Made by a program: the position numbers and the translations under genes
Virus record (IMG/VR): IMGVR_UViG_2671180511_000005
Reading direction: 5' to 3' (one strand)
Source: a virus
Taxonomy: Duplodnaviria; Heunggongvirae; Uroviricota; Caudoviricetes
Length of the DNA stretch: 8,937 bases
Notes under the pieces: generated by a model
Database searches by the model: none
What the model was told of the DNA's origin: nothing
What the model saw: only the letters and a program-made list of their open reading frames with translations
In this document: one piece after another, positions 3,279 to 8,937 of the stretch
Layout: each line of letters starts with the position of its first letter
How positions within the stretch are numbered: position 1 is the first letter of the stretch

Positions 3279-3941
3279 TCATGGCATGGCCATGAGCATT
3301 TTCACGTCCGCATCACCGTCTGCTGACGTCTGTGGCACGCCACCCTGTACCGCTGCCGGTGAATGGTTCGCCATGNNNNNNNNNNNNNNNNNNNNNNNNN
3401 NNNNNNNNNNNNNNNNNNNNNNNNNNNNNNNNNNNNNNNNNNNNNNNNNNNNNNNNNNNNNNNNNNNNNNNNNNNNNNNNNNNNNNNNNNNNNNNNNNNN
3501 NNNNNNNNNNNNNNNNNNNNNNNNNNNNNNNNNNNNNNNNNNNNNNNNTTCAGCCTGCGCCTCTGCCCCTTTTGCCTCATCCAGGGCCATAATCTGATCA
3601 CGAAGTGAGGGTCCGGCATTCGCCTGCGGTGAAGCAGCCAGAATCGGACGGGCTTTTTCCACCGTCATCTCCGGCATCGCCGCCAGCGTTGCCGCCAGTT
3701 GTTCACGTCCTTTCGCCTCTTCACATGCCATAATGCGATCGGCTTCACTCTGCGCAGATACACCAGATTGTTGCGGTGCCGCCACGGCCAGAATCGCCCG
3801 GGCCTGCTCAACGCTCATACCCTGTTGCCCTGCCAGCATCGTGGCCAGTTGTTCACGTCCTTTCGCTTCCTGACACGTCAGGATCCCCATCACTCGCTGG
3901 TTCTCCTGCGCGGCAGCCTCCGTTGCAGTTAATTGCGGCAT
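3279..3941 (-). CDS. nu3: scaffolding protein Nu3, in-frame internal start within C
   Basis: Internal ATG at 3939-3941 (MPQLTATEAA...) is preceded by AGGAGG with a 4-nt spacer and is in the C frame (4844-3941 = 903 nt = 301 codons). It corresponds to where nu3 starts inside C in lambda. Contains the RIMG/EEA.GRE scaffold motif, repeated. Confidence 0.55.
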   Translation of the reverse strand: MPQLTATEAAAQENQRVMGILTCQEAKGREQLATMLAGQQGMSVEQARAILAVAAPQQSGVSAQSEADRIMACEEAKGREQLAATLAAMPEMTVEKARPILAASPQANAGPSLRDQIMALDEAKGAEAQAEXXXXXXXXXXXXXXXXXXXXXXXXXXXXXXXXXXXXXXXXXXXXXXXXXXXXXXXXXXMANHSPAAVQGGVPQTSADGDADVKMLMAMP

Positions 3942-4844
3942 AGTGCCTCCTGTATCGTGTGTGTTCAGCGTCGCAGCCATCACGCTGATGGCGTCCGACG
4001 CATTGATTAATTCATCCGCCAGTTCGGCCTCAATACCGGACTGACCTTCAAAAACGGCGGCCTCTGTTCCCATAACCGCATCCACAGATAAACCGGTATA
4101 CATCGCCACTTTTTCAGCAAACATCCGGCGCGCCGCATCAATGCGCTGCTGCATGTCCTGGCGAACCTTTGCTGGCAGGGATTCAAACTGATTGCCATCC
4201 ACCTTGTGCGATCCGGCGTAAATCAGCGTGATATCCACACCGGCCTGTGCCAGATGACCGGCATAGCTGACATGGCCCATCATCACCCCAATGGAGCCGA
4301 TACGGGATGTCTGGGTAACCAGCCGTCGGGAGCAGGCCGATGCCAGTAACATGGCGGCTGAACAGGCCGTGTCATTGCACAGTGCCCAGACAGGCTTCAG
4401 CTGCCGGAGACGGTAAATCATGTCAGCGCAGTCAAACGCGCCGGTGGCCTGCCCGCCAGAACTGTCAATGTCCAGCAGTACGCCCCGTACCTGAGTGTCC
4501 GCCATTGCCTGCTGAAGACAGGCGACAATGCCGTCATAGCCAGTCATTCCGGAAAATGGCCGCATGCCACCCAGCCGGTGTACCAGCGTGCCGGTCACCG
4601 GCAGTACAGCAATACCGTTCACCACCCGGTAAACACGGGCAGGTCGTTTGCCTCCGGCCATGTACTCGTCCGTTTCAGCCAGCATCCCGGGAGCGTCAAG
4701 CTGTACCTGCTGTTGCGGTACCGAAAGGCTTGCTGCGCCCATCTCACGCCCGAGCGCGCAAAAGAAAACCCGCGCATAGGCGGGCTCCAGAAGCAGCGGC
4801 TCATTGAATGCCGCAGCGATAATATGTGAAAGATTACGTCTCAC
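3279..4844 (-). CDS. C: capsid assembly (prohead) protease gpC, containing the nested scaffold nu3 in the same frame; interrupted by an N-gap at 3376-3548
   Basis: N-terminus AFNEPLLLEPAYARVFFCAL, then GIAVLPV.GTLV, SGMTGY.GI, GAFDCAD, KPVWAL.ND..CSA..LLASA.SRRLVTQT.R.GSIGVMM, ITLIY.GSHKVDGN and FA.KV..YTGLSV all match lambda gpC. Start is GTG at 4842-4844, with GAGGAG about 10 nt upstream and an in-frame TAG further up. Protein length is unknown because of the gap. Confidence 0.88.
   Translation of the reverse strand: MRRNLSHIIAAAFNEPLLLEPAYARVFFCALGREMGAASLSVPQQQVQLDAPGMLAETDEYMAGGKRPARVYRVVNGIAVLPVTGTLVHRLGGMRPFSGMTGYDGIVACLQQAMADTQVRGVLLDIDSSGGQATGAFDCADMIYRLRQLKPVWALCNDTACSAAMLLASACSRRLVTQTSRIGSIGVMMGHVSYAGHLAQAGVDITLIYAGSHKVDGNQFESLPAKVRQDMQQRIDAARRMFAEKVAMYTGLSVDAVMGTEAAVFEGQSGIEAELADELINASDAISVMAATLNTHDTGGTMPQLTATEAAAQENQRVMGILTCQEAKGREQLATMLAGQQGMSVEQARAILAVAAPQQSGVSAQSEADRIMACEEAKGREQLAATLAAMPEMTVEKARPILAASPQANAGPSLRDQIMALDEAKGAEAQAEXXXXXXXXXXXXXXXXXXXXXXXXXXXXXXXXXXXXXXXXXXXXXXXXXXXXXXXXXXMANHSPAAVQGGVPQTSADGDADVKMLMAMP
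3376..3548. other. assembly gap (173 N) inside the C/nu3 coding region
   Basis: Run of N directly visible, flanked on the high-coordinate side by tandem repeat copies. Confidence 1.
3549..3910 (-). repeat. tandem ~150-bp (47-50 aa) repeats within the nu3 scaffold coding region, at least 2 full and 1 partial copy, continuing into the N-gap
   Basis: Exact 22-nt match ccagttgttcacgtcctttcgc at 3695-3716 and 3845-3866 (150 bp apart); gccagaatcg at about 3634-3643 and 3784-3793; gccataat at 3586-3593 and 3727-3734. Protein repeats: RVMGILTCQEAKGREQLATMLA.../ DRIMACEEAKGREQLAATLA.../ DQIMALDEAKGAEAQAE... Confidence 0.8.
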
Positions 4845-6427
4845 GTGATGTTGTCTCCTCTTCCGGCCTGCGACTCTCCGCTATCTGCTGCTGATACGCC
4901 TGGGCTATCCACACCGGACGTGAGAGTCCGGCTTTTTCGCGCTCTGCGGATTCCCTGACCTGCTGGCGGAAAATGTCCTGATAATCTTCGCCCATCAGTG
5001 CCAGTTCTTTCTCATACGTGCTCAGTCCGGCCTCAATGCGCATCACCGATTCCTGGACCTCCTTGAGCCCGTCAATGGCCATTCTTCCGGAGCTAATCCA
5101 CTCTGCCCGTGACCAGGCTGAACGCGCCTGGTAAAAATCAAAACGCGCCCGTGGCGGACGAATAATCCCCCGAAGAAGCGCCTCTTCCAGCCAGCAGGAA
5201 AACATCTGCGTGGCCAGCCGGGCCGCAATAAATTTTCGCCGCCCCATAAAATAGCGCCACGACTCATTGGCGGAGGCGCGGGCACTTGAGTAACTGACCT
5301 TCGAGTAATCACGGGACAACTGTTCGTAGGAAACGCCAAGACCGGCTGCAATATACCGCAGCAGCGCCTGTTCAAGCGCCGAAAATCCATTGTCTGAATC
5401 CTGCGCTGTCTGCAGGTTCAGCGCATCGCCAGGAAAAAAGGTGCGGAATTTTAACACCGCCCAGCGTCACGTTATTCGTGTCATACCAGCGGGTGAACTT
5501 CTCCAGAATATTAATAAGCGGATTATCCTGCTGACCTTGCGGTGCCCCCGCGATATATTCAAATGCCTTTTCGGTATCAAGTTCACTTTCGATTGTGGCT
5601 GCATACATCGCCTTCACAATGGCCGACTGAAGCTGCGTGGCCTGCAGGGAGTCCAGCATCTTCATCCGCTCCATTACGCTGTAAAACTGATTAGCCCCAC
5701 GGGTCTGCCCGTCCTCCACCGGCTCAAAAATATGCAGCATGGCCGGACGCCCGGTGGGAAGCTCACGCGGGATCCGCTCCCAGCGTCCGGCACCAGAGAA
5801 CGGAAAATCATCCTCACAGATATGGTACGCAATCGCCCGCCCATACCGATCGACCTCAACCCCGGCCCGCAGAAAGTGGTTCCCCATACCGTGTCCTGGC
5901 GTGTCCACCCGTTTCGGACTCACGGCTTTAAAACGCGTACGGAATAACTGCGTGGTTTCCGTATCCCAGACCGGCTGCACAAAGATTTCGCCGTTAAAGG
6001 CATGCACGCCCACCCCTTCACGGATAAATTCCGTAAACGTGCGTTTCCCTTCCACGTCGATCTCGCCAAACATTCCTTCTGCGTATTCCGACCAGGCTGC
6101 TTCCACCTCCCCGACAAAACTTTTTGCCGTGGTCTCCCGCATCCCCAGCCAACGCCAGTTCAGACGGTAGCTGATAAGAAACATGTGCCCGACGATATGA
6201 TCCTTATGCAGGGCCACCGCATTAGCCGCGATACCGTTATTGCGCACCAGATCATCTGCCCGGGCATTCCCCAGACGCAATGCAGGCAACAGGGCCGCAT
6301 CGGCACTCTGCGCCGGTGGTAACCACTCTGCCATTTGCCCGCCAAATCCTGCGCCGCCTCCGTTGTAGCTGAGACTCTCACGAAGCGGAACGCCGTTCAC
6401 ATCAATCAGGACAGGCGTTCGTTTCAT
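4834..6427 (-). CDS. B: portal protein gpB (lambda B-like), interrupted by a +1 frameshift in an A6 (sense T6) homopolymer at 5434-5439; either a pseudogene or a sequencing error
   Basis: Two ORFs (5372-6427 and 4834-5457) together match lambda gpB end to end: YNGGG.GFGGQ, LLP..R.GNARADDLVRNNG.AANA, IPRELP.GR, FEPVEDGQTRGAN.FYSVME.MKMLD.LQ.TQLQSAIVKAMYAATIESELDT in the first; PGD.LNLQTAQD.DNG, LLRYIAAGLGVSYEQLSR, SANESW.YFMGRRKF and SGRMAIDGLKEVQE in the second. Removing one base from the run restores ...PHLFPGDALNLQ... (lambda has ...PHLMPGDSLNLQ...). ATGA overlap with W at 6424-6427. Confidence 0.85.
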
Positions 6428-6627
6428 AACCTCACTCCCAGCGGTCGGCGGCGTCGGGTCGTACCCAGAACCGACTCCGCATCGTTGATCGCACGGTTAA
6501 GCTCATTCAGGGACGCTGCCGTATATTCGATCCTGCGACCGTCTTTCTGTACCGACACAACCCGTTTACCGGTTAATAAATCAAGGCGCGCCTGACGCAG
6601 CGCCTGCAGTTCAGCGACTGTAACCAT
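6424..6627 (-). CDS. W: head-tail joining / head completion protein gpW (lambda W-like)
   Basis: 67-aa ORF: E.L.A.R.A...L.TGKRV..VQKDGRR.E.T..S and a C-terminal RRRR match lambda gpW. ATG at 6625-6627 preceded by GGAGGAG and by the TGA of A (TGAATG). Confidence 0.85.
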   Translation of the reverse strand: MVTVAELQALRQARLDLLTGKRVVSVQKDGRRIEYTAASLNELNRAINDAESVLGTTRRRRPLGVRL

Positions 6628-8601
6628 TCACTCCTCCGGACAGCTTCGCTGCCAGTTCTTCAAGGGTCGGTTGTGCAGTTGCATCCTTGCGGGATGCAAC
6701 TGCACAGCCAGATCAAGNNNNNNNNNNNNNNNNNNNNNNNNNNNNNNNNNNNNNNNNNNNNNNNNNNNNNNNNNNNNNNNNNNNNNNNNNNNNNNNNNNN
6801 NNNNNNNNNNNNNNNGGCATACACCAGGCAGTCCAGCGCTTCGTTACGCCGCTTTTTGTTATCCCACAACAGACGCATCTTTCCTTTTTCCCACTTTTCC
6901 ACCAGTTCCTCCGCCACCAGTTGTTGTGCCTCTGTCTGCGAAAAAATCTCCGGATTATCAGGAAAGCGGATGGCATACGATGTGGCCTCATTCACAGGGG
7001 TGGGATCGGCCTTCATTCGGGCATAGAGAATTTCTTTTGCGGTATCCGTCCCCACCTCACACAGATACACACCCCGCTGATTGCGGGTTTTCGGCATGGT
7101 GATCACCGGCTTGCCATAGACAGAGGCACCTTTTACCGGCAGTACCCGGAAAATACCGTGTTTTTTTGACCTCTGATACACGATTTCGCCATCGATCCCC
7201 CCGATATCCCAGCAGACACGGGAAATGGTCATTTCGGTACCGTCTGCATGGCGGTATTTTTTATTGATCGCCGCATCCACACGTAACAGCGTCTCTTCCT
7301 CATCAGGACGTCCCATGATGATGATTTTATCCACCAGAAAGGCTTCCTCTCCCGGAGCCCACCCCCAGACATACATCTCAAAACGGTTTCGCTGCGAGTC
7401 AATGCCCGCCGTCAGATAAACCACCCGGACAGGCACCGTTGCCGTGTAAGGCACAACCTTATCCATCAGTACCTGGTGATCGAGTTTTTCGCCCACGGCC
7501 TCTTCCCAGGTCTCGCCCAGCGTGGTGTTCACAAAAGTTTTCACGCCGTTGGGATCTTTCAGTGCATCCAGCCAGTCACAGACTATCTGTACCCTGGTGG
7601 TGAACGGACTGTACGCCGTCCATATATGGAAAGTGATGGAGCGCGGCGGCGGAATTTCATTACCCGAAGCACTGAAAAACGTCAGACCGTCACACGTCCA
7701 CATCCCGGTATTGTCACAAATCCAGCGCCCCCCGGTCTGATCAAGTTCAGACTGACGGATCACGCAGCCATTATGTTCACACAGGTAATACACCGTTTCC
7801 GGTTTACCCTTCTCCCATTTCAGGCCAAACGACGTCGCATCATCGCCAAACTTCAGATACTGCTCCTCCCCGCAATGAGGGCAAGGGACATAAAACCGCA
7901 TGAAATGCGCAGATTCATTCGCAGCTTTTTCAATCTGACAGGAGCCTTTAATTTTTGGCGTTGAACCGCGTATGGATTTTGGCCATACCGAACCTTCAAT
8001 ACGTTTATCGCCAAGCAGTGTTGGCGAACCTTCTTTTTCCACATCCGGTTCAAACGAGGAGAGTTCGTCATAGCAGACCACATCGACAGATTTTTCACGG
8101 TAGTTTTTGGCAGCAGCACCACCCAAACACCAGAACCCCACACCAGAGGAAAAACGCTTCAGTGTGAGCGTATTATCCCGGTGTTTCCGGCCCAGCCAGG
8201 GAGAAAGTTTTTTCAGGCAAGGAACATCACGAATTGTTGCTTCCACGTGAGACTTCATAAAATCTTCAGCAGCTGAGTCCGTCGGCTGAAAAAGAAGAGT
8301 GTTGCGGGATTTGTGCTCAATAAAATACCCGATCACACCAAGCACCATTTTTGTATAACCAACACGGGCAGATTTAATCAGGTTAACTGTACGAATCTCG
8401 TCATTGCCCATGCAGTTCATGATGGCGACCTGAAACTGCAGCGTTTTCCATTCCCCCTCACCGTATGACGATTCTTTAGGCAGGTAATAATTTTGATCGG
8501 CCCATTCTACAGCCGTCACCGGCAATACCCTGACCAGTGGCTGCAGTGCGATAGTGACTGCCACCATCATATTACTCAGTTGTTGTTCTGATATATTCAT
8601 C
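6628..8601 (-). CDS. A: terminase large subunit gpA (lambda A-like), interrupted by an N-gap at 6718-6815
   Basis: The supplied ORF frame (stop at 6660) matches lambda gpA from MNIS... onward: AVEWAD.NYYLPKES, KSARVGY.K, EHK.RNTL, KNYREKSVDV, GSPT.LGDKRIEGSVWPKSIRGSTPK, CPHCGEEQYLKFGD, FHIWTAYSPFT, FVNTTLGETWE, YLTAGIDSQ, WGW.PGEE, SKKHG.FRV.P.KGASVYGKP, GTDTAKE and RRNEALDC.VYA. I place the start at ATG 8599-8601 (MNISEQQ), 19 codons inside the ORF-finder start. After the gap the lambda-like C-terminus (LDLAVQLH...SCPEE-stop) is in a different frame, that of W, ending TGA 6628-6630, so the N-run is not a base-for-base placeholder. Confidence 0.88.
6672..6706. repeat. perfect 15-bp inverted repeat with a 5-nt loop, inside the 3' end of A and 11 bp from the N-gap
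   Basis: tgtgcagttgcatcc (6672-6686), ttgcg loop, ggatgcaactgcaca (6692-6706); the arms are exact reverse complements (checked base by base). Confidence 0.9.
6718..6815. other. assembly gap (98 N) inside the A coding region
   Basis: Run of N directly visible; the reading frame of A differs on the two sides. Confidence 1.
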
Positions 8602-8895
8602 GAGTAAATCCGGTAATTTATCCCCCGCACGCGCGCACTGATTCGCTCCCTTAGCAATAAGGATTTTCAGATGATCAATATGACGCGGCGTTAAATCCGG
8701 GAACTGTCGTTGCATGGACAAAGGAATGGAGTCAAGCGTACTGGATAAAGCCATCGCCAGCTTACTAAGGGCAAAAATACAAAATCCGGTATCGATAAGA
8801 TTTCCTTTTGACACCTGATTTTTTAACTGCTGTGCGACAGCCTGTTCTGCGGTCAGTTCCCATCTGGCAATGAGTAGTTTGAGGTGTACTGGCAA
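8572..8895 (-). CDS. nu1: terminase small subunit gpNu1, C-terminal (gpA-interacting) portion only; N-terminus interrupted or truncated
   Basis: 107-aa ORF: AEQAVAQQLKN, GFCIFALSKLA...S.LD..PLS.QR.FP.L..RH.D.LK and LLDEYI match the C-terminal half of lambda Nu1. Its stop (8572-8574) overlaps the start of A by 30 nt, as in lambda. The only start in frame is TTG at 8893-8895, and an in-frame TAG at 8905-8907 lies just upstream, so the lambda-like N-terminal DNA-binding domain is not encoded in this frame. Confidence 0.6.
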   Translation of the reverse strand: MPVHLKLLIARWELTAEQAVAQQLKNQVSKGNLIDTGFCIFALSKLAMALSSTLDSIPLSMQRQFPDLTPRHIDHLKILIAKGANQCARAGDKLPDLLDEYIRTTTE

Positions 8896-8937
8896 TAGCG
8901 GACACTACCATTTGTTCTTTTTTTAAGCAGCCATCTG

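Follow-up and report, generated by a model that had tools for sequence, protein, structure and literature searches.

The window, by which we mean the whole stretch of 8,937 nucleotides that was analysed (from IMG/VR record IMGVR_UViG_2671180511_000005), is very probably the head-gene end of a lambda-like Shigella flexneri prophage that has become defective and in which the small terminase gene nu1 was cut by the insertion sequence IS600 and the DNA upstream of it was later deleted. The features that bear on this reading are given in Table 1. After the terminase genes, the gene order is W, portal, S49 protease, D, E, FI, FII, Z and U, as in lambda. The evidence comes from the nu1 remnant itself, from the IS600 end abutting it at the edge of the window, and from the same locus in 12 chromosomes.

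Table 1. Features of the window, from the window edge inward.
Feature	Position	Strand	Evidence
Right (IRR) end of IS600, IS3 family; continues past the window edge	8880..8937	-	Identity to annotated IS600 copies
Second in-frame stop, TAA, the IS600 orfB transposase stop	8923..8925	-	Annotated IS600 copies
In-frame TAG	8905..8907	-	In IS600 non-coding terminal sequence
TTG opening the mechanical 107-aa open reading frame	8893..8895	-	Within the IS600 terminal inverted repeat
AAC, right-hand copy of the 3-bp target-site duplication from the original IS600 insertion	8877..8879	-	Ancestral-type loci
nu1 (small terminase) 3′ remnant, codons 68-169 and stop codon (8574-8572)	8572..8879	-	Identity to the intact gene and profile matches
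terL (gpA-like large terminase)	6628..8600	-	Pfam GpA_ATPase, GpA_nuclease
Portal gene, disrupted by a +1 frameshift in the T run at 5434-5439 (T6 in place of T5)	4834..6427	-	Comparison with intact relative

The nu1 remnant and the IS600 end

The full-length reference for the remnant is a lambda-type small terminase of 169 codons, the intact 510-bp gene of E. coli FDAARGOS_943, and its 3′ 309 bp are found in the window at 100% identity. The 107-aa open reading frame that contains the remnant (8572..8895, minus strand) matches Pfam PF07471 (Phage_Nu1) with E = 5.9e-19, confined to profile positions 85-163/164, and the remnant matches the PHROG profile phrog_57 at positions 87-189 with E = 1.1e-37. 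When aligned via the intact homologue, which equals the window at every base from nu1 codon 68 on, the C-terminal region is 45% identical to lambda Nu1 residues 86-180. Hence by PF07471, phrog_57 and the lambda alignment alike, a C-terminal oligomerisation and TerL-binding region homologous to that of Nu1 is present. These matches are far above chance, and they show that of the small terminase the window has the C-terminal ~60% alone. The N-terminal winged-helix domain that recognises cosB is absent; homology stops at codon 68 with IS600 upstream, and the domain is also missing from the far flank in the chromosomes identical to the window. The remnant lies directly upstream of the gpA-type large terminase gene and overlaps it, the terL ATG at 8600 giving a 29-nt overlap with the end of nu1.

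At the window end, the minus strand reads ...CAG ATG GCT GCT TAA AAA AAG AAC AAA TGG TAG TGT CCG CTA TTG CCA GTA CAC CTC AAA CTA CTC.... The break is at codon 68 of 169, where the intact gene has ...GAT TAT GAA GAG AAA CTA CTC... and the window has ...CAC CTC AAA CTA CTC...; the first A of codon 68 (AAA) is the IS600 terminal base, 8880. The first five codons of the 107-aa frame (L/M-P-V-H-L) are encoded by IS600. A preliminary description made from the window alone had proposed an N-terminally truncated small terminase with an in-frame TAG, and both are seen on the minus strand, the truncation also being evident in the Pfam positions. It was right as well that only the C-terminal half is Nu1-like, with the correction that the homology ends short of the TTG, at 8879/8880. 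Its failure to find a Nu1 N-terminal domain in the other frames of the last bases is borne out, as there is no nu1 similarity upstream of 8880. Comparison with lambda would not have revealed this domain in any case, since even in the intact relative the N-domain is too diverged from that of lambda. Overlooked at that stage were the second in-frame stop and the fact that the last 58 bases are an IS600 end, which is the actual cause of the truncation. That the TAA falls in the frame of the remnant is a coincidence. A programmed -1 frameshift out of the second frame (open over 8936-8856) was considered and rejected; that frame is IS600 sequence.

The identity of the element was established from database matches and from its ends. 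The last 938 bases of the window were compared by megablast to phage and E. coli genome collections. Intact small and large terminase subunit genes align only from query base 58 on, which is window position 8880, with identities up to 99.9% (E. coli FDAARGOS_943). The first ~58 bases of the query have another kind of match, present in up to 43 copies per genome and on plasmids too. A query of 60 bases covering window 8878-8937, 58 of them from IS600, is identical at 60 of 60 positions to annotated IS600 copies in 2,769 E. coli genomes, the matching elements being annotated as "IS3-like element IS600 family transposase". In one annotated copy (L002), the transposase CDS, with its programmed frameshift, ends at 1846, equivalent to window position 8923; this copy also gives the orientation, with the IS600 transposase and nu1 on the same strand. 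The C-terminus of IS600 orfB in L004 is ...KYHQMAA*. Of the IS600 transposase, the window itself holds only the orfB stop. From the outermost base of the element, the plus strand reads TGAGGTGTACTGG..., that is, a TGAGGTG terminus. The terminal inverted repeat ends in TG...CA, and the sequence is nearly identical to reference IS600. Three loci identical to the window (L009, L011 and L014) have a complete 1,264-bp IS600 at the same position, with 99.4-99.5% identity to the reference, and in these the transposase is called either as orfA (100 aa) plus orfB (272 aa) or as one fused product of 385 aa; in IS600 the two frames are joined by a programmed frameshift.

Public assemblies call the nu1 remnant as a gene of 107 aa or 94 aa, and in many of them it stands as a miscalled 107-aa Nu1. 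The 107-aa "Phage_Nu1" frame of public S. flexneri assemblies is an IS-truncated pseudogene, and its start codon is IS600 sequence.

The same locus in other chromosomes

The exact 43-nt IS600-nu1 junction is present in Shigella flexneri SFBU1023 and in "E. coli" ECMA0423, and ten further chromosomes with 10 kb of flank were found by way of the exact gpW protein (encoded at 6424-6627). The comparison set consists of 12 Shigella-type chromosome loci (L003, L004 and L008-L017). L015 is CP000266.1, the chromosome of S. flexneri 5b 8401 (PMC1550401). The junction is identical in all 12, and the loci are of four types.

In type A (L015 and L017), a full Rz gene is followed by an extra inverted IS600 (duplication GTC) and by small genes. 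Next come 652 bp of cos-proximal DNA and the first 201 bp of nu1, then IS600 with AAC on either side and the 3′ part of nu1. Nested in the IS600 within nu1 is an IS629 (duplication CAC), and in both loci those 201 bp are 100% identical to the intact gene. The junctions in L015 are ...GAGAAAC followed by TGAGGTAG... and ...CACCTCA followed by AACTACTC.... Judged by its sequence arrangement, type A represents the simple IS600 insertion with its 3-bp target duplication, the ancestral state. Type B (L009, L011, L012, L014 and L016) has Rz nt 1-401, one G, the intact 1,264-bp IS600, AAC and the 3′ 309 bp of nu1; the G is a single extra base where Rz gives way to the left end of IS600. Type C (L003, L004 and L008) is like B with an added IS629-like element nested at another position of IS600 (duplication CAA). 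Type D (L010 and L013) has a deletion of its own: what lay between the inverted IS600 pair of an A-like ancestor is gone, cos and the 5′ part of nu1 included.

The target-site duplication differs between these types in an informative way. The flanks of IS600 are AAC and AAC in L015 and L017; in the window-type loci they are GGG and AAC, without duplication, GGG being the left flank in L009. The other IS insertions in these loci have 3-bp duplications as well (GTC, CAC and CAA), so the absence of one in the window type is meaningful. We take it as evidence for a secondary deletion and not as evidence against the identity of IS600. In type B, the left end of IS600 adjoins the lysis gene Rz, which is cut at nt 401 of 468. 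The Rz-side flank is colinear with types A and D as far as Rz nt 401 and is 99.8-99.97% identical to them, so the event was a local deletion inside one prophage and did not rearrange the chromosome. On the type A sequence the deleted interval spans 3,218 bp, or 1,951 bp when the extra inverted IS600 is discounted as a later arrival; against FDAARGOS_943 its length comes to about 2,990 bp. The missing DNA amounts to at least 1.95 kb and includes the 5′ part of nu1 and the cosB-like repeats described in the next section.

Outside its N runs, the window shows neither a substitution nor an indel against L009, L011, L012 and L014; against types A and D it shows 35-41 substitutions, and it therefore belongs to type B. 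Since the window reads only 58 bp of IS600, the arrangement of its far flank is taken from its identity to the other chromosomes. It is at this point that one might suppose a simple IS600 insertion and nothing more, with the 5′ half of nu1 and cos lying just past the element in the window's own genome. Such an arrangement does exist in L015 and L017, and the window's own far flank is out of view. However, the window differs from L015 and L017 by 41 substitutions and 7 indels, including a 1-bp deletion in terL near 6701, while four deletion-type chromosomes match it at every base, and we consider an undeleted far flank very improbable. Insertion followed by deletion is the reading we carry forward. 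In the window-identical chromosomes, the sequence further to the right is IS600 and then the lysis gene Rz. Of what the preliminary description had envisaged there, insertion sequence and lysis genes are thus found, but a Nu1 N-terminal domain and cosB-like repeats are not.

The lost DNA upstream of the remnant

What the deletion removed can be read from intact relatives. The intact orthologue of FDAARGOS_943, WP_074132335.1 (169-aa terminase small subunit), is 99.9% identical in nucleotide sequence over the nu1 3′ part and terL, and the Nu1 genes of Escherichia phages PhiR12_1 to PhiR12_5 are 86.8% identical over the same interval. Both carry the full nu1, and FDAARGOS_943 also carries a repeat-bearing upstream region. 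There, AACCGGACAT occurs three times in the region 80-175 bp upstream of nu1, the first copy inverted, with 47 bp of A/T-rich DNA between the first and second copies. The lambda-like tripartite cosB consists of three R sequences that bind TerS and an IHF site (PMC4669245), and the AACCGGACAT repeats with their A/T-rich spacer resemble it. In the intact relative, the first copy is opposite to the second and third; in lambda, R2 is opposite to R3 and R1 (PMC4669245). By this analogy, we infer that the repeats are a putative cosB. A search of the intact relative for the lambda cosN 12-mer, GGGCGGCGACCT, gave no match at ≤1 mismatch and matches at chance level at 3 mismatches. Two exact AACCGGACAT copies are retained in the type A loci; there are none in the window or in any B, C or D locus, so the window and the deletion-type loci lack the putative TerS-binding repeats, and with them the cos site, that would precede nu1.

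The lost N-terminal part of the protein comprises 67 residues (MATQTEVARHLSLTDRQLRRLQKLPGAPV...). Residues 1-63 of these match phrog_57, "terminase small subunit", at positions 12-86 with E = 2.6e-11. Residues 1-66 of lambda Nu1, the wHTH domain, match phrog_57 at positions 11-75, and MerR/HTH families as well. Since both fall on the same region of the profile, the lost piece is the DNA-recognition domain by homology; the role of the wHTH domain in binding cosB is described in PMC4669245. More general searches were uninformative. The Nu1 N-terminal region in Pfam is not matched even by the N-domain of the intact relative, the lost 67 residues had no usable Pfam match at lenient thresholds either, and searching the PDB with the sequence of the intact small terminase returned hits at chance level only. 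Isolated phages PhiR12_1 to PhiR12_5 have the same N-domain, at 94% identity, within their annotated Nu1, which indicates that the full-length form is a working phage gene. An N15/Monarch specificity type, as discussed in PMC4669245, was considered for the lost N-domain and rejected; N15 was not among the phages that tblastn returned, so the domain belongs to a different group.

The relationship to lambda Nu1 (PF07471, PHROG 57) can be put as follows. The C-terminal region is homologous, and the position and order of the genes are lambda-like. Unlike lambda Nu1, the window remnant has neither the N-terminal DNA-binding domain nor an upstream cos, and the N-domain of its intact relatives is a diverged specificity type that is shared with PhiR12 and more distantly with Aeromonas and Pseudomonas phages.

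Proposed history and decay of the packaging module

The order of events would be as follows. IS600 is proposed to have transposed into nu1 at codon 68/69, producing the 3-bp AAC duplication, and the simple-insertion state survives in CP000266.1 and L017. In the lineage of the window, a later deletion would have run from the left end of IS600, joining it to Rz, with Rz nt 402 through to the insertion point removed. This would have cost the prophage 67 bp at the 3′ end of Rz, the small genes that follow it, the cos region and its terminase-binding repeats, and codons 1-67 of nu1, which encode the DNA-binding domain. What is left of nu1 is a pseudogene fragment for the oligomerisation and TerL-binding part. 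That the insertion came first and the deletion second is suggested by the IS600-nu1 junction, because it is common to all of the arrangements. The deletion may have arisen by recombination of two IS600 copies in direct orientation or, alternatively, as a loss of DNA next to the IS end. Twelve IS600 copies were compared by their SNPs to see whether the window-type copy is a recombinant of two elements, and the pattern is homoplasic.

Without cos and the DNA-recognition domain, the prophage would be unable to cut or package its own DNA, and we infer a loss of function. The preliminary description had raised the same possibility, a degraded prophage that has lost its cos-binding domain and cannot recognise its own cos, and the evidence agrees with it. 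It had also entertained replacement of the domain in a mosaic; no different N-domain is fused upstream.

Other packaging genes of the prophage are damaged as well. In terL, the 1-bp deletion near 6701 replaces the last ~30 residues and is found in types B and C only. TerL is 636 aa in the identical locus L009 and 642 aa in the intact and A-type genes, with differing C-termini. In lambda, gpA binds the prohead through its C-terminal ~30 residues. The N run at 6718-6815 interrupts terL in the window and corrupts its translation there, and an exact-protein look-up with the window's terL had no match. The first open reading frame of the portal gene is 351 aa as compared to 530 aa in the intact gene, with the protein truncated after about residue 331. 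At the portal T run, there is no indel relative to the window in any of the Shigella-type loci covering the position (L003 and L008-L017). The frameshifts in portal and at the 3′ end of terL argue that the packaging module is no longer used and is decaying neutrally.

A different outlook on the fragment would be that it is expressed as a small terminase deficient in DNA binding, which, by sequestering TerL or by co-assembling with the small subunits of lambda-like phages that enter the cell, hinders their packaging. If true, a read-through fragment would be a dominant-negative decoy against superinfecting lambda-like phages, an accidental defence retained in S. flexneri. The region homologous to the self-assembly and gpA-binding part of lambda Nu1 is retained, the frame is open and called as a gene in public assemblies, and read-through transcription is conceivable from the intact IS600 transposase gene upstream on the same strand. 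However, the fragment has no promoter-like site (no sigma-70-like match was found in 8500-8937), its TTG start lacks a Shine-Dalgarno sequence, and the adjacent terL and portal genes are frameshifted, as neutral decay predicts. Its 100% conservation over 309 bp is uninformative at a background divergence of about 0.5%. We regard such a function as very unlikely. The evidence refutes the idea that a frameshift, sequencing error or contig-edge artefact interrupts an otherwise intact small terminase gene, as the preliminary description had allowed: the feature does lie at the window edge, with an A7 homopolymer at 8918-8924, but the sequence upstream of 8880 is 100% IS600 with no nu1 similarity in any frame, no single indel near 8895-8910 restores the full gene, and the junction recurs across 12 independent assemblies.

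Insertion of IS600 followed by deletion, the reading we favour, places the window among familiar events in Shigella. Five insertion sequences, IS600 among them, are expanded in every Shigella species, where IS insertions add to the loss of genes, and at least 199 pseudogenes are reported for each Shigella reference genome (Hawkey et al. 2020, PMC7373316). A phage gene truncated by an IS in a cryptic prophage of S. flexneri is expected, a matter of routine decay, and the significance beyond annotation is small. For annotation, the prophage is to be scored as non-inducible and non-packageable. As compared to other IS600 insertions in Shigella, the element is identical, the ancestral insertion has the expected 3-bp duplication, and nothing of substance is different, except that the window-type copy would have lost its target duplication through the flanking deletion. 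Taken as a set, the simple insertion, the two independent deletions and the nested IS629-like elements offer an example of stepwise IS-driven prophage decay, and the set could be used as a lineage marker in S. flexneri. The nested elements of the sister strains sit at two different positions within IS600.

Probable packaging site and small terminase families

Upstream of the intact small terminase gene (nu1) in the comparison prophage of E. coli FDAARGOS_943, the sequence AACCGGACAT occurs in three exact copies, of which the first is inverted and is separated from the second by a 47-bp A/T-rich spacer. This array probably represents the cosB of a packaging-specificity group that differs from those of lambda, 21 and N15. 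The lambda cosN 12-mer was searched in the intact relative, and a cosN was not found for this phage type.

Three PHROG families cover the small terminase: phrog_57 spans the entire protein, phrog_7289 (91 positions) matches residues 2-90 in the N-terminal part and carries the label "unknown function", and phrog_1790 (114 positions) matches residues 56-169 in the C-terminal part. The latter two may have been seeded from split gene fragments like those found at these loci.

Features and their coordinates in the window and in related loci
Feature	Sequence	Coordinates	Strand	Details
AACCGGACAT repeats, three exact	L005 (E. coli FDAARGOS_943)	11958-12054		upstream of intact nu1
Portal gene	window	4834-6427	minus	frameshift T5 to T6 at 5434-5439
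N run	window	6718-6815		98 bases
N run	window	3376-3548		173 bases
IS629-like element within nu1-borne IS600	L015 (CP000266.1)	5416-6725		at IS600 nt 181-184, duplication CAC
IS629-like element within nu1-borne IS600	L004	1934-3225		at IS600 nt 372-377, duplication CAA
Deletion junction	L010 and L013	4361-6725		inverted IS600 copy (nt 183-1264) joined to IS629 nested in nu1 IS600

Secondary rearrangements at the nu1-borne IS600

The IS629-like elements lie at two different positions of the IS600 in different strains, each a secondary insertion that arose independently. In L004 the element measures 1,292 bp, and its orfB is fragmented. In the Shigella-type loci L010 and L013, cos and the 5' part of nu1 have been lost a second time, independently, by a deletion apparently joined at a short CCT microhomology.

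Large terminase and portal genes

At the 3' end of the large terminase gene (terL), three substitutions and a 1-bp deletion are clustered at about 6698-6701 of the window. They alter the last ~30 residues of the protein (636 aa versus 642 aa), and the change is confined to the arrangement types in which cos has also been lost through the Rz-side deletion. Compared with the window, three Shigella-type loci (L003, L004 and L008) carry two opposite 1-bp indels in terL, at window positions 8002 and 7875, 127 bp apart, which represent either more decay or homopolymer assembly error.

The portal frameshift breaks the gene into ORFs of 351 aa and 207 aa. Every fetched Shigella-type locus covering the position has the state of the window, and the frameshift is absent in E. 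coli FDAARGOS_943. L008 also shows 24 clustered substitutions within the portal gene, around window 5648-5723.

N runs and the comparison prophage

In chromosomes identical to the window elsewhere, the two N runs correspond to 36 and 113 bases of real sequence, respectively. The run lengths therefore alter the reading frame, and ORF calls spanning them are artefactual. A 665-aa ORF (6660..8657) was rejected as terL, the real end of which is at 6628.

The "intact" FDAARGOS_943 prophage is itself damaged elsewhere (L006 7731-9352; L005 8414-8947). A frameshift is annotated in its head-tail joining gene, which is directly followed by a gene for an ISEc60 transposase. The lysozyme is interrupted by a stop within its sequence, and the replication genes are disrupted by IS elements. 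Relative to this prophage, the S49 peptidase gene of the window has a pair of 1-bp indels, separated by 8 bases (3761-3769), that compensate each other; they shift the frame locally over three codons and leave the gene open.
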